From: Escherichia phage ph0011
Sequence record: OP557969.1
Reading direction: 5' to 3' (one strand)
DNA length: 64,000 bases
A program made the position numbers and the translations under genes. Positions 6,924 to 64,000 of this stretch are shown here, piece after piece (position 1 is the first letter of the stretch; every line of letters begins with the position of its first letter). Below the pieces are notes generated by a model that was not told the origin of the DNA, searched no databases, and saw only the letters and a list, made by a program, of their open reading frames with translations.

Positions 6924-7286
6924 ATGTCAATTCAAGGTAAACAAGTAATGTCAGGTGAGCACATCGGAACCATCATGCTGGTGGATAATGATATTGCACG
7001 TATTATTGTATCTAAAACATTTTCAGAAAATGATGAAGTACTTTTGAGTACTTTTGACGGCGAAGAACTTCGTGACGTTCAGGTTAAACATGAACCTGGT
7101 ATTGAAGGTGGTCAGCATTTGAATGTAAATGTTCTATCTAAAGAACAACTCATTGATGCACAAAATAACCCTGAAAAGTATCCACAGCTTACTATTCGTG
7201 TTAGTGGTTATGCAGTACGTTTCAATTCACTAACAAAAGAACAACAAGATGATGTAATTTCTCGTACATTCACAAAAGAACTATGA
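6924..7286 (+). CDS. grcA: autonomous glycyl radical cofactor (GrcA/YfiD-like spare-part protein)
   Basis: C-terminal [10 protein letters not shown] ... [35 protein letters not shown] is near-identical in pattern to E. coli GrcA/PflB C-terminus; AAGGAGA SD. Confidence 0.85.
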
Positions 7287-7612
7287 TGGATTTAAAACCA
7301 ATTGTAGTGAACAAATACAAAGAACCGTATGATGTGTACATTGGTCGTGGGTCTAAATGGGGTAACCCATTTACCCATATCAATGATAAACAGACAAAAG
7401 CCGAATTCATTGTTGCTACAAGGGAAGAATCAATTGAAAAATTCCGAGAATACATTATTGACCGTATTTCTAATGGCGAAATTAAAATTGATGATTTACT
7501 TGAATTAGCAGGTAAACGTCTTGGATGTTTCTGCAAACCAAAATCATGTCACGGCGATGTTCTTGTTGAAATAGTGAGTGCAATATTAGATGAATTACCA
7601 GACGATAATTAA
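7283..7612 (+). CDS. DUF4326-like protein
   Basis: [12 protein letters not shown] ... [13 protein letters not shown] motif set; ATGA overlap with grcA. Confidence 0.6.
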
Positions 7613-8069
7613 AGATGACCTTATTAATGGTGAGGGGGTGAGGTGCTCCCTTTTTGTTAGTGGGTGTAGCCATTGTTGTGCCAAATGCTTCAACGAAAAG
7701 GCATGGGATTATAGAAGTGGCCAAGAGTTCAGTACTGAAACAATTGATATAATTTTAGCTGAACTCAGTAAACCGTACATTAGTGGGTTATCACTACTTG
7801 GTGGAGATCCACTAATGAAAAAGAACATCGAAACAATTTTAGAACTATGTAAAATTGTAAAAGATACTTATCCAAATAAAACTATTTGGTGCTGGAGTGG
7901 GTATACTTTAGAAGAGATTATGGATAATCATGCATCTCCAATACTGGAGTACATAGATGTATTGGTTGATGGTAAATTCATAGAAGCAGAAAAGAATTTA
8001 GAATTACCATTTAGAGGCTCTAATAATCAACGTATTCTTCGCAAAGGCGTAGATTATGCATTATCTTGA
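7590..8069 (+). CDS. nrdG: anaerobic ribonucleotide reductase activating protein (radical SAM)
   Basis: N-terminal Cys cluster GCSHCCAKCFN typical of NrdG-type activases; position adjacent to nrdD. Confidence 0.85.
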   Translation: MNYQTIIKDDLINGEGVRCSLFVSGCSHCCAKCFNEKAWDYRSGQEFSTETIDIILAELSKPYISGLSLLGGDPLMKKNIETILELCKIVKDTYPNKTIWCWSGYTLEEIMDNHASPILEYIDVLVDGKFIEAEKNLELPFRGSNNQRILRKGVDYALS

Positions 8070-18796: not shown

Positions 18797-19414
18797 ATGA
18801 ACAAATATCATGTTTACTATAAGACTAATTTATCACTACTGGAAAAATTAAACCATAAAAGTACTAAGATTAAACACTACACATTAAATGGAATTACTTT
18901 TAAGTATTTTCCACAAAAAGTTCTTACATTTATTAAGAATCCAAAATGCATAGCATGTGGTATTGAAGCAACAGAAGTACGTATTGAACGTACATTTAGT
19001 TCTGACCCAATTTTCGGTAAACCACATTTAAATCTATATGCAGTATGTGGTCTTTATGAAGTTTTAATGACAGTTGACCATAATAATCTAGCATCAAAAG
19101 GTGGTCCAGATTTAGAGTCGAACTTTAATACTATGTGCTCCAGATGCAATCAACTACGTTCAAATAAAACTGAATCAGTTGATGAGTTTCTTGTGAAAGT
19201 TAAAGGTCGTAATCTTCTACAAGAACATATGAATAATTTCTTTAATGTGCAAAATGGACAAAAGAAAAATAGTATTGATAAATCAAAACTACTAGAAGAA
19301 CGTAGATTACAACAAGAATTATGGGAAACTGATCATTTATGGCATGTTCGAGAATTTGGTCGCCATATGAAAGCGTTAAAAAAAGAACAAAAGAAATTGA
19401 ACAATCACAATTAA
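18797..19414 (+). CDS. HNH-family endonuclease (free-standing, homing-endonuclease-like)
   Basis: CIACG ... VDHNNLASKGG ... CSRCNQLRSNK resembles His-Me finger HNH motif with Cys zinc ligands. Confidence 0.55.
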   Translation: MNKYHVYYKTNLSLLEKLNHKSTKIKHYTLNGITFKYFPQKVLTFIKNPKCIACGIEATEVRIERTFSSDPIFGKPHLNLYAVCGLYEVLMTVDHNNLASKGGPDLESNFNTMCSRCNQLRSNKTESVDEFLVKVKGRNLLQEHMNNFFNVQNGQKKNSIDKSKLLEERRLQQELWETDHLWHVREFGRHMKALKKEQKKLNNHN

Positions 19415-19825: not shown

Positions 19826-20224
19826 ATGCTTAAAGAATTAGATTTTTCAAACTTAGAAATTATCAGTGCTGTTAAAAACATCTCCGACATGGGAGATGAG
19901 AAATCAGTGCTTGTTACTATTACTTTTGTAAAAGAAGAAGATAGTTATAGTCATTTGACTGGTATTGAAGAACTAATTCATAAAACCAATCTTGAAAATA
20001 ATGGTAAACTCATCAAACTTCAGGCATCCTATATCCAAAAAACATCAAATTTTATAGACATAAATAATATAGTCAAGGTGGTATATAATCATCCTGACCA
20101 CAAATATAGGAATACATCAAGAAATGAAAATATTGCGAAAGATACTAACATCATAGAAGATGTTGACTTTATCAATACTATTTTTGATCGTTGCTCTATT
20201 GATTTGAAAAAAGTATACATGTAA
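19826..20224 (+). CDS. hypothetical protein
   Basis: ORF track. Confidence 0.45.
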   Translation: MLKELDFSNLEIISAVKNISDMGDEKSVLVTITFVKEEDSYSHLTGIEELIHKTNLENNGKLIKLQASYIQKTSNFIDINNIVKVVYNHPDHKYRNTSRNENIAKDTNIIEDVDFINTIFDRCSIDLKKVYM

Positions 20225-20259
20225 TGGGACAATAATTGAACCTGTGATATAATGTATAT

Positions 20260-20782
20260 TGTAAAATGACAACGGACATTGTAAAAAATGGACACTGAAA
20301 ACCTAATTCACTTGAAAATGTAAAGGATAGATGAGCTTTACCGTTGTAGCGAACAGCAGAAGAAACCCGTTAGAGTACTGGCATTCAAACAAACACGATG
20401 TAAGACCACGAATCACGGCGACACGGCTGTATAAAGAACTCCGATAAGCATACAGAGAGTTCCTAGATAGATGTATAAGGTTCGCACCTTACCAGATTTG
20501 CTAAGGGAGTTTAAGAATGGCGAACGCAATTTTTACAAGAAAGTTGCGTCCAAAATTTGAGAACAAGTACTACTTTGATCGAATAGAGTTAGTACTGAGT
20601 GCTGTTGATGAAAAGACCAGCGACCGTTGCATATGACTGCGATAGAGAGAAACCGAGCAACCCGCTTTCGCTCTCTAAATCTTTGGTACGAGAAAGATCC
20701 GTCCAAAATTTGAGAAATTCGCAATTCGATAATATCCGATGCCATCAGCGTCAAGAAGAGACTTAATTGTCTCTTTTTTATT
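20260..20782 (+). ncRNA. candidate structured non-coding RNA region (no + strand ORF, GC-richer than flanks)
   Basis: about 600 nt without + strand ORF of 60 codons or more in an otherwise gene-dense array; TGaTATAAT -10-like element at 20245-20253; nested stems (gttcgc/gcgaac, cctta/taagg, agagag/ctctct); 17-nt direct repeat cgtccaaaatttgagaa at 20547 and 20700; ends at terminator 20755..20782. Confidence 0.3.
20755..20782 (+). terminator. intrinsic terminator
   Basis: aagagac/gtctctt stem, loop ttaatt, T-run. Confidence 0.65.
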
Positions 20783-20919
20783 ACTTTCATTCCCCTGTGG
20801 GGGATGAAATAGTCCTCAACAAATCCCGTCAAGTTATTAAAATACATTATCATTATTCAGAAGTAACAAGTTTACGAAGTAAACGAAGTGACTTCTTGGG
20901 TTGCGAGAGAACGAAGTGA

Positions 20920-21348
20920 ATGAGTAACACAACGAAAATATATAATAAATCTGAATTAACACAATTGTTATTCAAAGAATATTTTGAGTTTCAGATAAAA
21001 GACGAACATCAATTACCACAACAATACTTGAAAAGAATTAAAGATACGTCAGTAATTACTAAAGAAACTAATTTTTATAATAGTATTTTGGATTTCGTTA
21101 AATCAGTTCATACGACAAGACCTATTGTAGTTTTGTTTTTTGATAAATCTATCCCTTTAGTAGTTCCCGAAAATGTATTTTTTATCTCAGAAACTGATTT
21201 AAATAACCAAAGTACTATAAGTAGATTAAGAAATTGCTTACTTGTAGTATGTGATTCTTATTTGTATAATAACAGAATACTATGGGATAGAAGCAAACGC
21301 AATGCAATTTCGGAAATGAACCCTGAACTTACATTTATTATTAACTAA
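20920..21348 (+). CDS. hypothetical protein
   Basis: ORF track; ATG. Confidence 0.45.
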   Translation: MSNTTKIYNKSELTQLLFKEYFEFQIKDEHQLPQQYLKRIKDTSVITKETNFYNSILDFVKSVHTTRPIVVLFFDKSIPLVVPENVFFISETDLNNQSTISRLRNCLLVVCDSYLYNNRILWDRSKRNAISEMNPELTFIIN

Positions 21349-23481: not shown

Positions 23482-23961
23482 ATGTATAACCTTACAATTA
23501 TCCGCGAACCAAATGAATATGATGGTGATACGACATATGGTGAAGTTTTGGTATTTCAAAGTGCTGAACAAAGTGAAATTGAACGTGAATTAAAAGATTA
23601 TTTACGTGAACATTTATATCTATACCGTACTGATGCAAATTGTCATTATGGTGATATAATGTTTATTGTAACACACAATGGTGTAGTAATTGAATATGTG
23701 AATATGACAAATGCTATGGATTTTCTTAATTACACTGATACTTCTACACCATTGGATAATTATTTCAGTACTGTTTTTGATGAATTACGTAAGAACGTTT
23801 CTAGAAATGATAGATTCTGCACTAATGTTGGATTATTAGAATCAAATACAAGAAAGAATCTTTCTAAAAAGTATGATGAAGAACGTAAGAAAAATTTGGA
23901 AATTAAACATTTGCATGAGTTAATGAAGAAATATCCCAACGAGGTCAAATATGGCTCTTAG
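23482..23961 (+). CDS. hypothetical protein
   Basis: ORF track; GGAG upstream. Confidence 0.45.
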   Translation: MYNLTIIREPNEYDGDTTYGEVLVFQSAEQSEIERELKDYLREHLYLYRTDANCHYGDIMFIVTHNGVVIEYVNMTNAMDFLNYTDTSTPLDNYFSTVFDELRKNVSRNDRFCTNVGLLESNTRKNLSKKYDEERKKNLEIKHLHELMKKYPNEVKYGS

Positions 23962-31757: not shown

Positions 31758-31867
31758 AAAAATCGGGACAAAAAACCAATAACTGATATAATTATTAGTA
31801 TCTGAACATCGATTGATGACAAAGAGATAAGATATGCGTTATAGTTGTGGAATAATATTTTATCGTG

Positions 31868-37397: not shown

Positions 37398-37445
37398 ATA
37401 TGTGGTGATATAATGTTTATTACATTAACGTAAAGGAATAATCCT

Positions 37446-49621: not shown

Positions 49622-49634
49622 TAAAAAATAATTG

Positions 49635-49881
49635 TTGACAAGTTGAAAATGATGTGATATAATAAACATCACAATGAAAGTTTTCAAGTTTCACATGATG
49701 TGAGATTGAAAAAAAGAAAAAATAGTTGACGAGTTGAAATGATGTGATATAATGTTCACATCAAGACAACAAAGAGATTTACCTTTTAAACACACGGATG
49801 ATTCATGAAGTAACAAAGGAACTGATAAGTTAAAATATTTTAACACAGTTCCTTTACTTTTGCACACGGATTGGCTATAAT
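49635..49881 (+). promoter_or_regulatory. tandem promoter/leader region: P1 TTGACA-17-TATAAT (49635/49658), P2 TTGACG-16-TATAAT (49726/49748), P3 -10 TATAAT (49876); inverted repeats overlap the -10 elements
   Basis: consensus hexamers with TGa extended -10; GATGTGA/TCACATC inverted repeat flanks P2 -10; CACACGGAT repeated at 49792 and 49863. Confidence 0.6.
49815..49862 (+). terminator. leader hairpin/attenuator candidate between P2 and P3
   Basis: 10-bp stem aaaggaactg/cagttccttt with 21-nt loop, then acttttg. Confidence 0.4.
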
Positions 49882-55990: not shown

Positions 55991-56020
55991 AAAAGGGAGA
56001 ACATATGTTCTCCCTTTTTT
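55991..56020. terminator. bidirectional intrinsic terminator at the convergence point
   Basis: aaaa-gggagaaca-ta-tgttctccc-tttttt: perfect palindromic stem flanked by A-run and T-run. Confidence 0.8.
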
Positions 56021-56021
56021 A

Positions 56022-58313
56022 TTATCTAATTGTTACCAATGTTCTTCCGTCGAAACGTACATCAGGAGTTGAAGGTATACTAAACACCACGTTAGTGCCG
56101 TTAAACGTCACGCTATCGACCTCAACACGAGTATATACACCAGGGCTAATCTGTTCCTGTATCTCTGCTGTAACGATGTTTGAGGCTGTTACTGTAAGGG
56201 TGTATGAATCACCACTTAATACCCATGATGAAATAGTAAATGCGTCTGTCCTAACTGAACCTGAACCAATAGGAACCCATTGCCCTTTTACCTTTTGCAT
56301 AGAGGTTCGTTCGGATGTAGAGTATGCAATCATACCATCGACACCCACTGAGTTATCAATGCTTGCTAGTACTGGCAACTGAATACCATATCTATTAAAA
56401 CGTGTACGGATAGTTCCATTATCATAGATACTTACATCAGCATAATTACCCATAGAAAGTTTCAAATCCGCTCCATCCAATGTCATTGAACTTTGATTTG
56501 TATTACTTTCTAGTGTGAGTACACCGTTAGCTAATAAATTGATATTTTTAAATTTATTACTATTTCCTTTAAAAGTTGTATTAGCATTAAAAGTACTTGC
56601 ACCGTTAACTACAATAGTATTTTCTGCTGTGTCGCCTAATATGGTATTACCATTCAAAGTGGTTTCACCATCTACTACAATATTGGATTCGAAAGTACTA
56701 TTACCATTTACTACAAGATTGGATTTAAAAGTTCCATCACCATCTACGTCTACAGTAGAATGGAAAGTACTCTTACCATTAACCACAATAGTATTTTCTG
56801 CGGTATCACCCAATATGGTATTACTATGAACAGTCAAATTACCACTGGTGGTAACATTACTAGCTAGTGTATCACCATTCAATGTACTTGTTCCATCTAC
56901 TACAATATTGGATTTGAAAGTACTTTTACCATTAACCACAATAGTATTTTCTGGGGTTTCACCCAATGTTGTATTACCATGAACATTCAAATTACCACTA
57001 GCAGTAATATTACTAGCTAATGTATCACCAACCAATGTACTAGTACCATCTACTACAATATTACCATGAAAAGCACTTTCACCATTTTTGAATTCAACTT
57101 GTTCTTTATTCATTGAACTAAATGAAATGATATTACTACTTGCACTTATTCCAACATTAGTATTAGTTGGATTATCGAATCTCAGAACTGGCGTTGACGC
57201 AGGTGATGATGTTGATTGATATAATGTCAATGTCGAATTGGTAATTCTAATACGTTCAGTTCCAGAAGTACTGAATCCAATAGCATCATCAGCAGGATGA
57301 AAAATACCAGTATTCGTGTCTGACCATTTTTCAGGGTCATTACCTGGGTTGCTTACTGGGTCGTATGGGCTATTGTTAAATGCAATTGCTGGTGCGGTAG
57401 CACTACCATAGGTCACACCAAATCTACCACCTCCTACTGTACCATCGTCGTACATGGAATCACCAGTCCTACGTAAGCATTCAATTACAACGTTGTCGAT
57501 TGATGTTTGAACGGTTCCTGCATTCGTTCTAAATGGACGATTATTTGCAATCATGATAGTATTATCATATAATACTGAAGCTGCTGAAATACTAGTTCTT
57601 GATTGACGAAGGCGAATGTTTTTATCTTCAGTGATAATGATCCAATCACCATCTGATAGTGCTGTTTGGTTCATTGGTACACCGGATGCAAACGGTTTAG
57701 TTAAATCTTCATCAGTTGCTAAGTTTACTAGCCCACTATGACCAGTACTGGGAATGGCGGTAGATACAATTCTCGCAAAAGCATATGTTACGAGTTTAGC
57801 ACCAGAAATATTTGGATTAGAATCAACATAATATAAAATTTCTACCCAATCACCCTGACCAGTTGGGTTAGTTGGAGTGAATGTCACTGTACTTGTTGTT
57901 GGTTTATTAGCTTCAAAGTGTGCTTGTGCTGCATCTATAATACCACGTACAACATAATAATCACCACTAAGTGATGCTGTAGGTGCAGGTAGTGGACTTT
58001 GTGCCAAAGGTGGGTCTATATCATCAGGGATTGGATTATACGTACCAACAAATTGTAAACCACTAGTTACTGAATCTGGTAACTGTGATGTAAGAAGTTT
58101 GCCGTTAGCATCTAAGTTTGCAAAACGTCTATATGCCATCGAGCCATCTTCAAAATCCAGAACACCCTCGAATGATTTCCATTCTTTATTGTATCTAATC
58201 ATCCCTGATCTTATTACGTCAGCGGTTTCTTTTGATGGTGCTTTTGGTAACTCTAAAAAAGATTTACTATCAATAATTACACCACCATCACCTCTAATTC
58301 GATTTATACTCAT
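56022..58313 (-). CDS. putative tail fibre / tailspike-like protein with tandem ~37-aa beta-rich repeats
   Basis: 763 aa; repeats NTIVVNGKSTF.SNIVVDGTSTL.GDTLASN.T.SGNL.VH.NT.LGDTAENTIVVNG; GAGGA SD before ATG at 58313. Confidence 0.55.
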   Translation of the reverse strand: MSINRIRGDGGVIIDSKSFLELPKAPSKETADVIRSGMIRYNKEWKSFEGVLDFEDGSMAYRRFANLDANGKLLTSQLPDSVTSGLQFVGTYNPIPDDIDPPLAQSPLPAPTASLSGDYYVVRGIIDAAQAHFEANKPTTSTVTFTPTNPTGQGDWVEILYYVDSNPNISGAKLVTYAFARIVSTAIPSTGHSGLVNLATDEDLTKPFASGVPMNQTALSDGDWIIITEDKNIRLRQSRTSISAASVLYDNTIMIANNRPFRTNAGTVQTSIDNVVIECLRRTGDSMYDDGTVGGGRFGVTYGSATAPAIAFNNSPYDPVSNPGNDPEKWSDTNTGIFHPADDAIGFSTSGTERIRITNSTLTLYQSTSSPASTPVLRFDNPTNTNVGISASSNIISFSSMNKEQVEFKNGESAFHGNIVVDGTSTLVGDTLASNITASGNLNVHGNTTLGETPENTIVVNGKSTFKSNIVVDGTSTLNGDTLASNVTTSGNLTVHSNTILGDTAENTIVVNGKSTFHSTVDVDGDGTFKSNLVVNGNSTFESNIVVDGETTLNGNTILGDTAENTIVVNGASTFNANTTFKGNSNKFKNINLLANGVLTLESNTNQSSMTLDGADLKLSMGNYADVSIYDNGTIRTRFNRYGIQLPVLASIDNSVGVDGMIAYSTSERTSMQKVKGQWVPIGSGSVRTDAFTISSWVLSGDSYTLTVTASNIVTAEIQEQISPGVYTRVEVDSVTFNGTNVVFSIPSTPDVRFDGRTLVTIR
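56560..57060 (-). repeat. tandem in-frame nucleotide repeats (about 111-nt units) inside fibre gene
   Basis: recurring blocks accacaatagtattttctg ... atggtattac visible on + strand text. Confidence 0.55.
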
Positions 58314-58361
58314 TTAAATATTTCCTCAGAATAGATTATATATGATGTATTTATTTTAGAT

Positions 58362-58393
58362 AAAAGAAAAGGCCAAGTATAGACCTGGCCTTT
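58362..58393 (-). terminator. intrinsic terminator (- strand) after 58400..59179 gene
   Basis: aaaggcca/tggccttt stem; T-rich tail on - strand. Confidence 0.55.
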
Positions 58394-58399
58394 AAAAAA

Positions 58400-59179
58400 T
58401 TATTTATTACGTTCAGGTATCTGAATACCTTCATATACCCATTTAGCAGCTTGTTGTGCTTTATAAATTGCATCTGGGTCAGAATCATCAACTGCATCAA
58501 TCGCTGCACATTGCTCTTCACATTCAGAAAATAGTTTTTCTACCATTGCGGATACTTCAGTATATAGTTGTGTCATTTCTTCTGAGGTAAGTTTTACAAT
58601 AGCATCATCCAGTATGATAGTGACATTTTCAGCACCCGACACTACTTGTGTATAATAATTAAGTAGCATTTGACGACCTGCAAGATCGGTATTGTAGCGA
58701 TGACCTTTGAATTCATAACCTGAATTAACACGAAATGCTCTCTCAGATAATGTTCTTTCTTTTAAATCTGTTTTTACATCAGCAATGGGTACATCAACAA
58801 AATTATAAGTTTTAAGTACTGTTAATGCTTTATATTCATCAGTTGCATCTTCCAAAAATTCCACCACTGGTTGCTTTTCATCTTTCAAACGAACATATTC
58901 CAATTGTTGGCCTTTTGAATTCACATTACCGACATTTTTATATTCTAACCACCAAAAACCTTCTTCTTTTCTCACTACATCATTCGGCTCTACTGGTGAA
59001 CCATCAACACTGGAAATTCCGTACAGAGTTCTAATATCACTATAAAGATAACGATAAGTCTGAGTATCATCGGGAGTTGCACCTGGACGTTCTTTAAGAC
59101 CTTTAACACCAATTGGATTAGTAATAATATTACCCAATTCATAATTTTCTTTTGAATCACCTTTCACATATGTGAACAT
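58400..59179 (-). CDS. hypothetical protein between two fibre genes (possible fibre assembly/accessory protein)
   Basis: 259-codon ORF; GAGGTAG SD; position between fibre genes. Confidence 0.5.
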   Translation of the reverse strand: MFTYVKGDSKENYELGNIITNPIGVKGLKERPGATPDDTQTYRYLYSDIRTLYGISSVDGSPVEPNDVVRKEEGFWWLEYKNVGNVNSKGQQLEYVRLKDEKQPVVEFLEDATDEYKALTVLKTYNFVDVPIADVKTDLKERTLSERAFRVNSGYEFKGHRYNTDLAGRQMLLNYYTQVVSGAENVTIILDDAIVKLTSEEMTQLYTEVSAMVEKLFSECEEQCAAIDAVDDSDPDAIYKAQQAAKWVYEGIQIPERNK

Positions 59180-59241
59180 ATAACTACCTCATTTGTTATG
59201 ATGGTGTCACCAAGTATAGGTGACACCTTTTATTATAATTA

Positions 59242-62200
59242 TTAAGCGGTACGTTGAGCAATAAACATATCTGCTACTGAACTTACACCATCGTAAATTA
59301 CCTGATAGATAGTTACAGAGTTTGCAGTTTTATTTAGAGTCCCATCAACAACAGCATATGTACCATCAGTAGTAAAGTTTCTATTACCAGTTGCATCTTG
59401 TTTAACATAAATGTATACTGATGATGCTTTTCCACCACCGATTAGACCAGTGATTGGTGCTAGAGTAGTATCTTGATCAAGAGTGATGAAGTATACGTTG
59501 CTAGTACCGTCAGGGGTCCAAGTACCATTCGGTGCAATAACAGAGGAAGTTACTTTACTTGGAATAACATCATACTTTTTGGTAGTTACGGTTGTAGTGG
59601 CGAGTTCTGCGTTGGTTGTAGTTAACTTACCAGTAACAGTTACTTCTTTATCAAACACCGCATTTTCTTTGAAAGTTGGTGTTGAATTAACAGTTAGTGT
59701 GTCAGTATTAGTATTACCTAAAACCACACTACCACTTGCTGTCATCAAACCAGAAACAGTTAGTGTACCACCAATAGTTGCATTACCAGTTACTGATGCA
59801 CTAGCAAGTGTAGCTGCACCAGATGTAGTTATTGTTGTAACAGATGCTGCCTCTAGTGTGGTTGCACCAGTTGCGGTAAGTTTACCATCAACTACTAGAT
59901 CACCAGTTACGGATGCACCACCGGACATTGTTACTGCCCCACCGAATGAACCAGTTGTAATTACTTCAAGTGTGTTACCTTTTAGTAATTCAGTTGCTGT
60001 GATACTTGTACCAGCGGTAATGCTTGTACCCGCAGAAACAGTATTAGTTGCAGTTAAGGACTTCACAGCTACATCAGAGTTAGCTTGGTTAAGTTTAGCA
60101 TTTAGAGTACCTGTTACTGTGAAGTCACCGTTGTTAACAACATTACCATTGATAGTTAGATTGTTATTTTGTGAACCGACATCACCAATTGTTGCTGATT
60201 TAGAAATTAACTCAGCACCAGCGGTAATGTTGCCAGCAGCACTGATATTGTTTGCTGCAACAACTGCATAAGGTTCAATTGTTTGACCACTAACATCAAT
60301 ATCTGCGTTAATACCACCATCAACACGCAAAGAACCAGCAATATATGTATTAGGGAAAATCTGAACAGTTTCAGTGTGTTCACCGACCTGTGTACCAACA
60401 ATAACATTAGATCCAGTTTTCACTGCACCAGAAGTTGTTAGAGAACCTACTGTTGCTTTGCCAGTAACACCTAGTGTACCGCCAACAGTTGCATTATTAG
60501 TTACTGCCAATGCTGTTCCTTCACCATTCAGTGTAATTGATGGAGCAGTTGCTTTACCAGTTACATCTAGTGTACCACCAACAGTTGCATTACCATCTGA
60601 ATGTATTGTTGTTGCAACAGAAAGACTGTTTGCAATTACATCCGCACCAGTCAAATCCAATGCACCTGGTGTTAATGTACCAGTAATGTTAACATTATTA
60701 CCAAAGGTTGCTGCACCAGTTACATCTAGTGTAGTGCTAAATGTACCAGAAGTTGCAGAGATTGCACCAGATTCAAGTGAACCAACAGTGGTTTTTCCAG
60801 TTACACCCAGTGTACCACCAACTGTTCCATTTGTTGTAACTTCTAGTGTTCCAGTACTTAGATCTTTTGCTGTCACTTTACCAGATGCGTTAACAGTTGT
60901 TGTTGTAACACCACCACTTAGGGTGCTTGTCCCAGTAACACTGAGTGTTTTTGCTGCACTAACGCTGTTTACAGTAAGATCAGCACCTGATAGGTCTAAA
61001 CCACCTTCAGGAATAAAATTACCCTTAACTGTTAGTTGTTGAACAGTACTGTCACCAGTTACATCTAGTGTAGAAGCAGTCAAACCACCATTCATACTTG
61101 CTGCACCAGTAACATCTAGTGTAGTTGTTACAGTTGCACTGTTTAGTGTGGAGCTACCGGAAATATTAGCACTAGGTGCAGTAATAGATCCTTTTACAAC
61201 TTGTACATCACCCGCAACAACATCAATACCACCAGCATTAACTGTTAGTTTTTCAGCAGTATTCAACGTACTTGAAATTGTTGTTGCACCAGTTAAGGTT
61301 GTAGTTCCAGCTACACTTATGTTTCCAGAGATAGATGGATTACCTGTAATGTCACCAGTAGTGAGAACCAATTCAGTACCTACAGTAGTAGAACCAGTAC
61401 TTTCTAGTGTTACACCAACGATGTTTGCAGAACTTAGGTTAATAGTACCATCAACAGTTAAGTTACCGTGAACGGTCGCATCACCAAGTGAATTTAATGT
61501 TTTCACTGAAACATCAGTTTTACTAAGGTCAATTACACCCGCAGTAAGTGTTCCAGATACTGCCAAATTACCAGTTATTGCTGTATTTTTAGTAATAGAT
61601 ACTGTTTCTGATGCTGACGTAATGGAGCCAGCAGTAAGTGCCCCACCAATGGTTGCATTGTTAGTTACGGTTAACGCTGTTTCTTCACCAGATAGTGTTA
61701 AAGAAATACCATTCATTTCACCAGTAATATTTGCCGATGCCGCAGAAATATCACCAGCAACTACCGCATTTGTTGCGTTTAGGGTTGTTGTGGTAATTTC
61801 AGTACTTTTCACTTTAGGTAGTGCGTTGATACCATCTTTACTATTAACTGTAATAATACCAGAACTTGTTAGAGATTTAACAGAAACATCTGCACCACTT
61901 AAGTTAACTGTACCAGAAACAACTAGATCGCCACCAATATTAGCTCCTTCTGTTGTAGTGATTGATTTTGCATTAACTTCAGTGTTACTCAAATCAATTG
62001 CACCAGGTGATACAGTTCCAGAAACTGTGAGATTACCAGTAACTGTAGTATCATTAGAAATAGATACGCCATCATCATTGCTAATTGTTGGGGTTTCAAT
62101 TGTAACAGCTTTAACTTTACCAGAAGAAGTCATGTCAGCAACAGTAGATGCACCAGTGACCTTTAGATTAGTAATATTTGCAGTAGTTGAGCCAAGTGTA

Positions 62201-64000
62201 GTAATCGTACCATCAGTACTTTCTAGTTTAGGAAGAACACTAGCAATAGAAGATTCGTTACTAACAATTGCACCAGTACTAGTTAAAGATTTGACAGTAA
62301 CATCAGCCGTAGTAAGATCTACTGTACCATTAACAGTTAGGTTACCACCAATAGTTGCACCAGCAGTAGTAGTAATGGATTTAGCATTAACATCAGTTGT
62401 TGCTAGATCGATAGAACCTGGAATAACTGCACCAGTAACGGTTAGGTCACCAGTTACATTTGTATTATTGGAAATAGTGACACCACTTGCATTTGAAATG
62501 GTTGGGGTAACCAACGATGCAGTTGTAGTTTCACCAGTTACAGTTAAAGTTGACCCAACTAGAACAGATGAGCTTGAGTAAATTGTACCCAAATTAGCAG
62601 ATCCGGTAACAGTTATATCATCAGCATTAACAGTAGTTGTCGTTATGGTAGTACTATTAAGTACTGGAAGTACGTTAGCATTAACAAGATCATTACTTTT
62701 AACAATACCAGAAGTAGTTAATGATTTAACATTAAGGTTGGCTGCTGATAAATCAAAAGAGCCTTGAACTACTAAATCACCACCAATAGTTGCACCAGCA
62801 GTAGTAGTGATTGATTTAGCATTAATATCGGTAGTGCTCAAGTCTAGAGAACCAACAGTTAAGCTACCAGTAATATCAACATTTTCGGTGAAGTTAGTAT
62901 CACCACTAATAGTTGGTGCAGTAAGATTTGTTGCACTAATATTAGTACCGTTAATTGTTTGCCCACTTACAGTTCCACTCGCAGTGATAGTAGGAGCCGT
63001 TACTTCAGTAGATGCACTAATTGTTGGTGCAGATACAGAAGTTGTACCAGTAATAGTACCAGAACTTACTGAACCAGCGGATAATGCACCAGAAAGAGTT
63101 GCAGTTGTACCAGCAATATCACCAGTAACAGTTAGTTTAGCACCCACGGTAGTGTTACCAGTACTTTCAAGTGTTGCACCTTTAATATTTGCTGCCGCGA
63201 CAACAGAATTAGGTGTTAGATCTTGACCACTAACATCAACAGTTAGTCCAGTTACTGTTCCAGTAAATTCAACATCATTAAGAATTGCCTTACCACCAAC
63301 TGTAAGGTATGGTGTACTTGGGTCTTGAGTATCGTTACCAGTGATAGTTAGATAATCTAGTTTGTTTAGGCCGTTACCAGTAATACCATAAGAAGATAGT
63401 GATGCATTACCAAAGGTAGCAGTTTTAAGTACTTTCAATGTTGCTGGGGAAACCAACTCAGATTGAACTTCATTAGGTAAAATAACGGTTGGACGTTTAT
63501 CTTGTGCGGTATACGCAAAACCTAGTTTCACAGCAGAATCTTGTGAATTTTGACCTAAACTAATAGCTTTAAAAGAAGCAGTACCGTTTAAACCAGTAAT
63601 ATTAGATCCTAGTGTAACACCACCAACTAAAGAAGACGCACCCTTTATATTTAAAGTGTTTGCATCAATATCATCAAGTTGGAAATCACCACCAAATGTA
63701 CCGGAAACATTAATATTATTAAAATTAGCAGTACCAGTACTTTCAATATCTGGAATGGTTGCTGTTCCAGTAACCTCAAAATCAGCAACTTTAGTTTTAC
63801 CTTTTGTCACTTCTAGAAGTGGGGTGTCAGGTGATTGTGTATCGTTACCAGAAACGGTTAGATAATCTAGTTTGTTTAGACCATTACCAGTAATACCATA
63901 AGAAGACAATGATGCATTACCAAAAGTAGCAGAAGTTAAAACTGTCAATTTAGCAGGTGACATTAATTCAGATTGAATTTCATTTTGTAGAATTACTGTT
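59242..64000 (-). CDS. giant repetitive fibre/adhesin-like protein, 5'-partial (N-terminus beyond window end)
   Basis: more than 1580 codons, T/G/S/V-rich; frame stays open past 63963 with residues matching an internal repeat (NEVQSELVSPATLKVL...). Confidence 0.6.
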   Translation of the reverse strand, partial: TVILQNEIQSELMSPAKLTVLTSATFGNASLSSYGITGNGLNKLDYLTVSGNDTQSPDTPLLEVTKGKTKVADFEVTGTATIPDIESTGTANFNNINVSGTFGGDFQLDDIDANTLNIKGASSLVGGVTLGSNITGLNGTASFKAISLGQNSQDSAVKLGFAYTAQDKRPTVILPNEVQSELVSPATLKVLKTATFGNASLSSYGITGNGLNKLDYLTITGNDTQDPSTPYLTVGGKAILNDVEFTGTVTGLTVDVSGQDLTPNSVVAAANIKGATLESTGNTTVGAKLTVTGDIAGTTATLSGALSAGSVSSGTITGTTSVSAPTISASTEVTAPTITASGTVSGQTINGTNISATNLTAPTISGDTNFTENVDITGSLTVGSLDLSTTDINAKSITTTAGATIGGDLVVQGSFDLSAANLNVKSLTTSGIVKSNDLVNANVLPVLNSTTITTTTVNADDITVTGSANLGTIYSSSSVLVGSTLTVTGETTTASLVTPTISNASGVTISNNTNVTGDLTVTGAVIPGSIDLATTDVNAKSITTTAGATIGGNLTVNGTVDLTTADVTVKSLTSTGAIVSNESSIASVLPKLESTDGTITTLGSTTANITNLKVTGASTVADMTSSGKVKAVTIETPTISNDDGVSISNDTTVTGNLTVSGTVSPGAIDLSNTEVNAKSITTTEGANIGGDLVVSGTVNLSGADVSVKSLTSSGIITVNSKDGINALPKVKSTEITTTTLNATNAVVAGDISAASANITGEMNGISLTLSGEETALTVTNNATIGGALTAGSITSASETVSITKNTAITGNLAVSGTLTAGVIDLSKTDVSVKTLNSLGDATVHGNLTVDGTINLSSANIVGVTLESTGSTTVGTELVLTTGDITGNPSISGNISVAGTTTLTGATTISSTLNTAEKLTVNAGGIDVVAGDVQVVKGSITAPSANISGSSTLNSATVTTTLDVTGAASMNGGLTASTLDVTGDSTVQQLTVKGNFIPEGGLDLSGADLTVNSVSAAKTLSVTGTSTLSGGVTTTTVNASGKVTAKDLSTGTLEVTTNGTVGGTLGVTGKTTVGSLESGAISATSGTFSTTLDVTGAATFGNNVNITGTLTPGALDLTGADVIANSLSVATTIHSDGNATVGGTLDVTGKATAPSITLNGEGTALAVTNNATVGGTLGVTGKATVGSLTTSGAVKTGSNVIVGTQVGEHTETVQIFPNTYIAGSLRVDGGINADIDVSGQTIEPYAVVAANNISAAGNITAGAELISKSATIGDVGSQNNNLTINGNVVNNGDFTVTGTLNAKLNQANSDVAVKSLTATNTVSAGTSITAGTSITATELLKGNTLEVITTGSFGGAVTMSGGASVTGDLVVDGKLTATGATTLEAASVTTITTSGAATLASASVTGNATIGGTLTVSGLMTASGSVVLGNTNTDTLTVNSTPTFKENAVFDKEVTVTGKLTTTNAELATTTVTTKKYDVIPSKVTSSVIAPNGTWTPDGTSNVYFITLDQDTTLAPITGLIGGGKASSVYIYVKQDATGNRNFTTDGTYAVVDGTLNKTANSVTIYQVIYDGVSSVADMFIAQRTA
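63329..63990 (-). repeat. two ~150-nt near-identical direct repeats about 510 nt apart inside giant fibre gene
   Basis: gtatcgttaccag ... gttagataatctagtttgtttag ... ttaccagtaataccataagaaga ... tgatgcattaccaaa at about 63329 and about 63839. Confidence 0.7.

Follow-up and report, generated by a model that had tools for sequence, protein, structure and literature searches.

What occupies a 695-nt gap between closely spaced genes in the genome of Escherichia phage ph0011? The window analysed here is a stretch of 64,000 nt of this genome (OP557969.1), an Asteriusvirus (a PBECO4/121Q-like jumbo coliphage), and the gap lies at 20225–20919, bounded by the open reading frames (ORFs) 19826–20224 and 20920–21348, both complete and separate, with no gene split by the intervening element. 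An original prediction, made from the sequence alone, described about 600 nt without a + strand ORF of 60 codons or more and richer in GC than its flanks, and proposed a non-coding RNA extending from a promoter to a terminator. Our measurements agree with both compositional claims: the longest + strand ORF inside the gap has 55 codons, neighbouring genes are spaced by 1–53 nt, and the GC content of 20300–20799 is 0.405–0.42, against 0.26–0.31 in the flanks (200-nt windows). Homologous copies are present in Rak2-like jumbo phages and in a family of enterobacterial defence islands, and their comparison shows that the sequence has been under selection for a fold of at least 16 helices around a near-invariant core at 20620–20671. 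We hold with about even confidence that 20225–20833 forms a standalone gene module that encodes a large and highly structured non-coding RNA.

Covariation carries the structural part of this answer. Alignment A5 contains 30 sequences, including all paralogue types, metagenomic members, three bacterial copies and the copy of phage RaK2, and on it we counted a curated structure of 16 helices and 78 pairs, two of the helices being pseudoknots. In this structure, 91.9% of cells form a standard pair, against 38–45% when partners are slid by 1–3 columns. Two-sided changes were observed in 50 of the 78 pairs (13–20 when slid) and in 303 cells (23–50 when slid), and the covariation score was 0.373 (0.03–0.08 when slid); none of 500 shuffles reached the observed values on the four pairing and covariation measures. 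The percentage paired is partly circular, because the structure was derived from the same sequences, and the counts of two-sided changes together with the slid controls are the informative part of the test. An unbiased scan of all column pairs recovered the same helices and pseudoknots, and RNAalifold, run on 20 sequences, predicted 62 pairs, 24 of them with compensatory changes. Among the pseudoknots, two are formally supported, one comes from the unbiased pair scan and one is a tentative loop contact. The + strand gives 91.9% canonical cells versus 87.4% for the − strand, with 143 G.U cells, and this preference agrees with the orientation of the promoter and terminator. Folding and covariation analysis against homologous phages had been suggested with the original prediction, with a lack of covariation as the outcome that would speak against an RNA; the counts given here are what that analysis returned.

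A conserved protein gene in the homologues was the other outcome named as adverse to the prediction, and an unrecognised coding function does have some basis in the databases. Most curated records leave the region unannotated, and others place one to six 'hypothetical proteins' there; SHEFM2K (PQ390715) has up to six over the full query, 121Q has gene 516 on the − strand (L001:4386–4541), and the window itself contains a 106-codon − strand ORF at 20533–20853. Against this, the frame with the longest stop-free stretch is not the same in all 30 homologues, each of the six frames being represented, and no consistent 3-base periodicity of variability was detected. Long invariant blocks of the alignments are interrupted by indels that are not multiples of three, and even the 95%-identical orthologue of 121Q differs from the window by a 1-nt indel in a G-run. 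We regard a protein-coding explanation as having a next to negligible chance; with reading frames not conserved, the hypothetical-protein annotations on the element are very probably spurious, and dozens of database records carry them. The original proposal of a non-coding RNA between promoter and terminator is thus supported, both by the covariation and by the absence of a conserved protein frame.

The limits of the module are marked by the following features.

20225–20231, + strand: −35-like element TGGGACA of a phage-specific promoter class with consensus TG(G/A)(G/A)AC(G/A), aligned in all copies
20245–20253, + strand: extended −10 element TGATATAAT, with GGGACA 16 nt upstream (score 10/12)
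20260–20782, + strand: predicted primary transcript of ~523 nt, a structured RNA delimited by promoter and terminator, with a covariation-supported fold
20753–20782, + strand: intrinsic terminator with stem core GAGAC/GUCUC (20758–62/20769–73) and U-run (helix 15, 4/5 pairs covary)
20786–20808, + strand: post-terminator C/G hairpin UUCAUUCCCC-UGU-GGGGGAUGAA (helix 16, 95.3% paired)
20814–20833, + strand: conserved block CCUCAACAAAUCCCGUCAAG with a second CGUCAAG motif, the 3′ edge of the unit common to the islands

The promoter has the layout TGGGACA-N13-TGATATAAT, from which transcription would start at about 20260. Its −10 part had been noticed in the original prediction at the same position and proved to be near-invariant: all 30 aligned sequences agree in the first T of the TG and at five of six positions of the hexamer (TAyAAT). 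The −35-like element varies by lineage, being TGAAACG in GAP32 and CBB, TGGAACG in BF and TGAAACA/G in island copies. A promoter class with a '−35' of TGAAACG and a normal −10 has been described for CBB and GAP32, with 18 members in CBB that mostly lie ahead of DNA-synthesis genes (PMC5259590), and the promoter of the element falls in this class, which suggests transcription together with the middle-type gene class. At the other end, the terminator hairpin spans 20753–20778 and is followed by a T-run; the clean terminator that had been read at 20755–20782 is therefore present with slightly wider limits and a covarying stem. A 2-kb scan found three terminator-like sites where 0.7 were expected. 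Related promoters occur elsewhere in the window. A second GGGACA-N13-TGATATAAT promoter lies at 31763–31792, and extended −10 promoters at 23652–23680 and 37406–37430 have the same initial transcribed sequence as the element (TGATATAATGTWTATTGTAA / TGATATAATGTTTATTAC), which hints that the start-site context is conserved among the three. At 49630–49753, two near-identical consensus promoters (TTGAC[A/G]AGTTGAAA...TGATATAAT) stand in tandem, 90 nt apart.

Conservation defines a unit that continues beyond the terminator. The C/G hairpin has an invariant G strand, GGGGG(G)AUGA, and a C strand in which U/C changes alone occur; the pattern is unique in the window, where 0.01 chance matches are expected, it is present in every copy, including the island copies, RaK2 and the first copy of 121Q (121Q_c1), and the motif alone recovers the family. 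The consensus of the block at 20814–33, which all copies likewise carry, is CCUCAACAAAUCYCGUCAG, and it is here that nhmmer matches of island copies stop. CGUCA(A)G is found twice, once ahead of the terminator and once behind the hairpin, and from lineage to lineage a change in one copy of this motif is matched in the other. The post-terminator segment may be either a read-through part of the RNA population or a site acting at the DNA level. A loose resemblance to the S element of group I introns had been noted near 20800; the segment concerned, AAATAGTCC (20807–15), is part of this conserved block and is unrelated to group I introns. A CRISPR repeat was also considered for the C/G hairpin and rejected, as the match to CRISPR-DR37 is at chance level (18 bits against a gathering threshold of 40) and the motif occurs once in the window.

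How widespread is this unit? We recovered the family, at several loci per genome, with the invariant core 16-mer GAGCAACCCGCTTTCG and, independently, with the post-terminator hairpin motif in a viral collection, and then with an nhmmer profile; the core 16-mer and a core 26-mer each recover it from public collections. By BLAST, the region is conserved in 71 phage records at 66–97% identity, with three to four matching places per record; this conservation and the covariation of the fold lie far outside what chance would give. Identity is 92–97% to PBECO4, 121Q, phAPEC6 and other Asteriusvirus jumbo coliphages, and 66–71% to unannotated gaps in Salmonella phages Munch and 7t3, Serratia phage BF, Cronobacter phage GAP32, Pectobacterium phage CBB, phages of Erwinia and Yersinia, and others. 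At least four named genera of Rak2-like jumbo phages are represented among the homologous gaps. Each genome has at least two to three dispersed, diverged full-length copies at fixed sites, confirmed by nhmmer, with 62–71% identity between paralogues; the window holds one copy and no paralogue. Full-length copies in four genomes are placed as follows.

121Q: ~193, 248 and 327 kb, the 248-kb copy being the orthologue of the window element
Serratia BF: ~174.5, 259 and 335 kb
GAP32: ~177 and 261.5 kb
CBB: ~174 and 258 kb

In RaK2 and K64-1, BLAST matched only ~49 nt, and the alignment revealed a divergent full-length copy in RaK2. That copy directly follows a putative RNA polymerase sigma-factor gene (ORF244), and ORF245 is annotated on its RNA core (L075:721–1617, 1640–2330). 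Flanking genes define syntenic sites that recur across genera: 121Q, BF and Munch, for instance, all have a copy with an endonuclease VII-like gene on one side and the baseplate hub on the other. No flanking protein family common to different paralogue sites was found, and the phage sites have no conserved partner gene. At the so-called E-site (copies in Munch and Serratia BF, and 121Q_c3), the next genes are convergent, which leaves the RNA as the only product there. In a neighbour-joining tree of alignment A5, paralogues of the same lineage cluster together and not with the same-site copies of other genera, which suggests either gene conversion among copies or co-evolution with lineage-specific partners. 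The RNA is probably needed in quantity or in several variants.

The fold itself consists of the following parts; helix numbers and percentages refer to alignment A5.

20271–20345, + strand: 5′ pseudoknot, AACGG 20271–75 with CCGUU 20341–45 in the loop of hairpin c (pair scan of 29 sequences: 5 pairs, 4 compensatory)
20308–20327, + strand: hairpin b with conserved loop GAAAAUGUA (helix 1, 5/5 pairs covary, 94% paired)
20335–20350, + strand: hairpin c, GCU/AGC (helix 2, 100% paired, 2/3 covary)
20353–57/20426–30, + strand: long-range helix d (helix 3, 98.7% paired, 3/5 covary)
20367–70/20415–18, + strand: long-range helix e (helix 4, 99.1% paired, 4/4 covary)
20353–20430: region enclosed by helices d and e, with a variable arm at 20371–20414 and conserved internal loops (AGAAGAAAC, GCRAYRCG)
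20421–20474, + strand: pseudoknot f, ACA 20421–23 with UGU 20472–74 (helix 5, 96.7% paired)
20436–20462, + strand: hairpin g, GAACUC/GAGUUC, with AUAAGCAUA in its loop (helix 6, 6/6 pairs covary)
20476–20491, + strand: hairpin h0, UAAGG 20476–80 / CCUUA 20487–91 (helix 7, 57.9% paired)
20480–85/20521–26, + strand: tentative contact of the h0 loop, GUUCGC, with GCGAAC in the site-1 insert (alignment reading)
20500–20509, + strand: Shine-Dalgarno-like GCUAAGGGAG, apparently unpaired (AAGGGA invariant in 30/30 sequences)
20534–20563, + strand: repeat unit copy 1 (site 1), a small hairpin with AAAAUUUGAGAA tail
20567–20595, + strand: hairpin h, GUACU/AGUAC, its loop forming the 5′ strand of pseudoknot i (pair scan: 5/5 covary; 70.5% paired in A5)
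20578–20730, + strand: pseudoknot i, AUCGAAU 20578–84 with AUUCGAU 20724–30 (helix 9, 98.1% paired, 7/7 covary)
20600–20622, + strand: hairpin j (helix 10, 98.8% paired, 2/3 covary)
20620–20671, + strand: near-invariant core CGACCGUUGCAUAUGACUGCGAUAGAGAGAAACCGAGCAACCCGCUUUCG, with a small hairpin GAGC/GCUU (20655–58/20664–67)
20638–42/20719–23, + strand: long-range helix k, UGCGA/UCGCA, stacked on pseudoknot i (helix 11, 99.3% paired, 3/5 covary)
20672–75/20712–15, + strand: helix l, UCUC/GAGA, inside helix k and closing the site-2 insert (helix 13, 100% paired, 4/4 covary)
20687–20716, + strand: repeat unit copy 2 (site 2)
20738–20752, + strand: hairpin m, GAUG/CGUC, followed by the first CGUCAAG motif (helix 14, 94.6% paired, one-sided U.G to C-G change)

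Within the core, the segments GACCGUUGC and GCAACCCGC are invariant in all 30 sequences. Support for the 5′ pseudoknot comes from the 29-sequence scan, A5 being misaligned in the variable 5′ leader; one of its pairs, for example, is GC in 21 sequences, AU in four and UA in three. Pseudoknot f occurs in three co-varying states (AUG/CAU, AUA/UAU and ACA/UGU). The variable arm exists in two alternative versions and is missing from loci L017, L028 and L074. Hairpin h0, read from the alignment as UAAG/CUUA in GAP32 versus UGAG/CUCA in L017, is supported in the unbiased pair scan, and the low A5 scores of h0 and h are attributed to putative register shifts of variable loops. The possible contact between the h0 loop and the site-1 insert is suggested by a change from U-A to A-U in A4, 121Q_c1, the first BF copy (BF_c1) and the E. 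coli island, with one exception in Citrobacter. The Shine-Dalgarno-like GCUAAGGGAG is followed by a start codon in some lineages only and has no conserved ORF.

These helices revise the pairings of the original prediction, which had nested CCTTA/TAAGG within GGTTCGC/GCGAAC and added TAGAGAG/CTCTCTA. All the segments exist. The complementarity of GGTTCGC and GCGAAC appears to covary (an alignment reading without a formal count), as a loop-to-insert contact and not as an enclosing stem. TAAGG at 20476 pairs with CCTTA at 20487, and not CCTTA with a downstream TAAGG; TAGAGAG/CTCTCTA clashes with the covarying helix 20672–75/20712–15. The last two stems are superseded by the covarying helices. A hammerhead-like GAUGAG...GAA motif at hairpin c was likewise rejected on inspection, its 'GAA' varying as part of covarying helix d.

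The 17-nt exact direct repeat that had been noticed at 20547 and 20700 is the core of a longer repeat of 30 nt with 90% identity, and the occupancy of its two sites differs by lineage. Site 1 is filled in the window, A4, 121Q_c1, BF_c1, the Munch group and the islands, and is empty in the GAP32 group; site 2 is filled in the window, A4, the GAP32 group, L017/L028 and the islands, and is empty in the Munch group, BF_c1 and 121Q_c1/c3. Some members thus carry the module solely at site 1 (Munch group, BF_c1) and others solely at site 2 (GAP32 group), and the window, A4 and the islands have it at both; by analogy, it would behave like the peripheral tertiary-contact elements of large compact RNAs.

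Downstream of the unit, up to the start codon at 20920, the gap holds a lineage-specific feature:

20870–20895, + strand: small hairpins GUUUAC-GAA-GUAAAC and GAAGU-G-ACUUC with the ACGAAGURAAYGA repeat (D3)

In other lineages, a comparable hairpin that covaries takes this place (CAUUC-GAA-GAAUG, CAAUC-GAA-GAUUG or CAUAC-GAA-GUAUG). Upstream, 0.8 kb from the element, lies a 205-aa ORF (18797–19414) that carries the annotation HNH endonuclease in 121Q and A4; because the other paralogue sites do not have it, this is probably the gene of an unrelated homing endonuclease. Farther along the window, at ~56000–64000, genes turn to the − strand (large ORFs 56022–58313, 58400–59179 and 59242–63963), and the sign of the GC skew flips at the same place, the skew tracking the direction of transcription.

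Copies of the module were also found in bacterial chromosomes. The core 26-mer matched one of 185,579 species genomes, that of Citrobacter amalonaticus, and the element is present, unannotated, in two of 5,426 complete E. coli genomes; no copy was found in plasmids. Downstream of the Citrobacter element lies a 165-aa ORF (ORF165) belonging to a small protein family restricted to Enterobacteriaceae, through whose relatives we reached another six loci, which lie in Klebsiella variicola, Enterobacter roggenkampii and metagenomes. In these six, a full-length element (455–469 bits) fills the gap between an integrase gene and ORF165. The element lies at about 7137–7825 in each of loci L087–L092, and the other island loci are L056:1845–6991, L070, L076:15997–26341 and L077. 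The carriers are ~10-kb integrative islands between chromosomal genes; an identification of the Citrobacter and L070 carriers as temperate prophages was rejected once longer contexts were seen. The island backbone has the following order.

1: large serine recombinase (520, 629 or 746 aa)
2: RNA module
3: ORF165
4: CI-like repressor
5: HTH_35 protein
6: 186-aa and 118-aa proteins
7: variable cargo slot
8: small resolvase
9: DUF2188 protein, often present

The cargo varies from island to island.

Type II-A retron (reverse transcriptase, RT, 2.6e-121; NDT effector, 4e-85)
Methyl-directed restriction enzymes (7.6e-63)
PDC-S31 with an NB-ARC/TPR protein

The E. coli island adjoins ffs, has a tyrosine integrase instead and carries PDC-M45 and PDC-S16; it has in common with the others the 118-aa protein (68% identity), the resolvase (92–93%) and the DUF2188 protein (67%). 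The RNA module always lies upstream of the island genes and in the same orientation, whether these are ORF165 or genes for 257-, 118- and 150-aa proteins. ORF165 stands beside the RNA in one island subfamily only and has no PADLOC match, and no replication or packaging genes are recognizable in the islands. In the island of E. coli EEC_W5, ~650 nt of unannotated GC-richer sequence between the RNA module and the next gene (L076:20640–21296) contains a repeated palindromic motif, CGATCGTTATTATCGATCG.

Island copies keep the promoter (TGAAAC(A/G) or TGGGATG, with the same spacing), the helices, both repeat units, the terminator and the post-terminator block. In the neighbour-joining tree, they nest within phage diversity, beside copies of Eneladusvirus and Mimasvirus, and this position indicates transfer from phage to island. 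Among 50,697 phage records, we found no relative of ORF165 or of the proteins of 118 and 186 aa, which leaves the RNA module, a unit of ~700 bp, as the only thing shared with jumbo phages. The module is autonomous, having no shared neighbouring protein gene and having moved alone into the islands. The islands may be satellites of jumbo phages.

Does the RNA belong to a known family? An Rfam scan had been proposed with the original prediction, and Rfam 15 (4,227 families) gave no match at gathering thresholds in the 64-kb window. In permissive scans, nothing relevant was found at E≤10 in 20100–21000, nor inside the element at E≤5 in seven divergent homologues. RNase P RNA, 6S RNA and signal recognition particle (SRP) RNA had no Rfam match in the window, the region or the seven homologues, and ARAGORN detected neither tRNA nor tmRNA, be it in the window or in 17 loci that contain a copy. 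The earlier caution regarding a group I intron, for which neither an R element nor a split gene had been seen, was justified: no Rfam intron family matched at E≤10, and the group I intron (RF00028) was rejected, with no P3–P9 core match at any threshold used, flanking ORFs whole and neighbours that differ at each site. The distant relative PA5oct encodes two RNAs supported by RNA-seq, ncRNA001 and ncRNA002 (PMC7318152); these were rejected as relatives, as there was no nhmmer match and no common motif. Both are highly expressed (L055, 8263–8498 and 21951–22401), and ncRNA002, with its high GC content and a terminator at its end, may represent another large phage RNA in its own right. No description of the RNA family was found in the searchable literature or in Rfam 15. 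The family is new in the sense that it has no detectable Rfam relative and no description in that literature.

The closest analogues in kind are GOLLD and ROOL. Like these, the present RNA is several hundred nucleotides long, rich in pseudoknots and built around a conserved core, occurs in phages and in integrated elements, has no adjacent partner gene and is of unknown function. GOLLD and ROOL often adjoin tRNA genes in phages and prophages. The present RNA fails the tests of family-model match and tRNA adjacency: there was no covariance-model match even in permissive scans, and no neighbouring tRNA genes in the window and the 17 loci. It also differs in its gammaproteobacterial hosts, in its jumbo myovirus carriers with several paralogues per genome, and in the conservation of promoter, terminator and post-terminator block as one unit. 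GOLLD and ROOL are reported to form homo-oligomeric assemblies (PMC12286853), and self-assembly of the present RNA is a possibility by analogy. The phage- or satellite-encoded phi29 pRNA and P4 CI RNA also work as structured, untranslated RNAs, but they are 70–170 nt long, single-copy and unrelated in sequence and fold. The phi29 pRNA oligomerizes by loop-loop pairing, and the P4 satellite relies on an RNA in its interplay with the helper. With type III toxin-antitoxin systems (ToxI-ToxN), the island arrangement shares the order of promoter, repeat-containing RNA, terminator and downstream gene (here ORF165). Unlike ToxI, however, the present RNA has two 30-nt units 153 nt apart that are non-tandem and either of which is absent from some members, within a large non-repetitive fold; the downstream genes vary by site, no ToxN-like gene is present and ORF165 matches no defence model.

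What could such an RNA do? In the mechanism that we prefer, the phage-type promoter would start transcription near 20260 and the intrinsic terminator would end most transcripts near 20782, giving an RNA of ~520 nt that would itself, once folded, be the functional product. It would be made in quantity in the early-to-middle phase and would act in trans as a compact three-dimensional (3D) RNA, either a ribonucleoprotein (RNP) scaffold or an RNA-only assembly, engaging machinery specific to the phage lineage. The island copy would exploit or interfere with the same interaction during jumbo-phage infection, and the post-terminator segment would belong to a read-through form of the RNA or be a separate site. 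This trans-acting mechanism is put forward tentatively, with rather less than even confidence; it is favoured because paralogues of the same lineage cluster and the island copy is retained. Pseudoknots combined with a peripheral hairpin module at site 1, site 2 or both are typical of compact 3D RNAs, to which the likeness is one of analogy. Several points weigh against it. In every copy, conserved sequence goes on for ~50 nt beyond the terminator, and the terminator stem is missing from 121Q_c1 and RaK2; a simple terminated, trans-acting RNA leaves both facts unexplained. The start site, 3′ end and abundance of the RNA are all inferred, and no transcriptome for the Rak2-like clade was found in the searchable literature. 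No partner protein, RNA or ligand was identified, single-sequence folding of the window RNA (minimum free energy −123.7 kcal/mol) has a z of only −2.5, and a helper phage that already supplies several copies leaves little reason for the island to keep its own, unless as a decoy.

Three things are best accounted for by the strongest rival of this mechanism, an origin-associated RNA: the post-terminator conservation, the promoter class and the place of the module in islands without recognizable replication genes. Here, each copy would be a replication origin whose middle-type promoter yields a structured pre-primer or organizer RNA, the conserved DNA just beyond the terminator, with its G/C hairpin, CAAATCYCGTCAG block and AT-rich sequence, would serve as the priming or helicase-loading site, and an island copy would let an infecting jumbo phage replicate the island and package it by the headful, making the islands jumbo-phage satellites. 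There are precedents: the transcripts of the T4 middle promoters oriF and oriG serve as R-loop primers, plasmids with T4 origins are replicated and packaged after infection, and ColE1 RNA II is a pre-primer of ~550 nt whose fold controls priming. The present module resembles the T4 origins in that a promoter would drive a non-coding transcript at non-coding sites scattered over a T4-related genome, the promoter class being that of DNA-synthesis genes; it resembles RNA II in length and in having a fold, which for RNA II matters in priming, and it occurs on small elements without replication genes. Several dispersed copies per genome at conserved sites, a promoter class that in CBB and GAP32 mostly precedes DNA-synthesis genes (PMC5259590), conservation reaching outside a terminated RNA, and a module that belongs to the backbone of ~10-kb islands with integrase and regulators and without recognizable replication or packaging genes all fit an origin, as does the resemblance between paralogues of a lineage, expected of sites read by lineage-specific machinery. 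However, T4 origin transcripts have no conserved elaborate fold, and the present RNA ends at an efficient-looking terminator that separates it from the putative unwinding region. DNA after the post-terminator block is AT-rich, but so is the whole genome. The 16-helix pseudoknotted fold, with its core near-invariant across genera, is far more elaborate than any known primer RNA, and neither a GC-skew inflection nor a switch in gene orientation was seen at 20.5 kb, a weak objection given that T4-like genomes rarely show such signs. On balance, we regard an origin as conceivable but doubtful.

A position between promoter and terminator would also suit a leader acting in cis, in which the fold decides between stopping at 20782 and reading on into downstream genes, as in a riboswitch or a processive antiterminator such as HK022 put, both of which are likewise folded nascent RNAs; in the islands, the downstream genes would then respond to infection. 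The terminator does stand at the 3′ end of the fold, conserved hairpins reach the ribosome-binding site of a co-directional gene at several phage sites, the island module is always upstream of and co-oriented with island genes, and the 'CGUCAG' motif on both sides of the terminator could allow alternative pairings. Yet the E-site copies of Munch, Serratia BF and 121Q_c3 face convergent genes and have nothing co-directional to regulate, downstream genes are unrelated between sites, no cis-regulatory family of Rfam matches, and at ~500 nt the RNA is several times larger than known leaders or put RNAs (five to seven times in comparison with HK022 put and riboswitch leaders), all of which makes this explanation improbable. 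A self-processing element spreading as DNA, whether group I-like, group II-like or another ribozyme, seems more remote still, and we consider it very unlikely. Horizontal movement into islands, the HNH endonuclease gene found 0.8 kb before the element in the window and a fold that is pseudoknotted as in large ribozymes speak for it, but no intron or ribozyme family matched at E≤10 in the window region or at E≤5 in the seven homologues, no gene is split, the HNH gene is absent from other sites, and the copies are old (62–71% identity between paralogues) and sit at conserved syntenic sites.

Compared with the original prediction, the present view adds several paralogues per genome, a clade-wide family, revised pairings and a unit extending past the terminator. 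To our knowledge, few bacterial or phage RNAs of more than 400 nt combine a complex conserved fold with an unknown function, among them OLE, GOLLD, ROOL and raiA. Study of such large RNAs, where undertaken, has in every case brought surprising biochemistry to light, RNA-only cages being an example. The present family is tractable, with culturable phages of E. coli, Salmonella, Klebsiella, Serratia and Erwinia, a defined promoter and terminator, and natural paralogues and module-swap variants. It links RNA structure and phage-host conflict with the biology of jumbo phages, in which several copies are maintained under strong constraint. A bolder reading, which we think unlikely, is that the RNA is an important stoichiometric component of Rak2-like infection, as a self-assembling RNA or RNP or as an RNA-organized origin, and that the islands are the first satellites or hitch-hikers of jumbo phages. 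If this were true, the islands would use the RNA module as their sole handle on the helper, for replication and transduction or as a dominant-negative decoy, while carrying interchangeable defences. As the only sequence common to jumbo phages and these mobile defence islands, the module offers a route by which the question of jumbo-phage satellites may be tested in E. coli.

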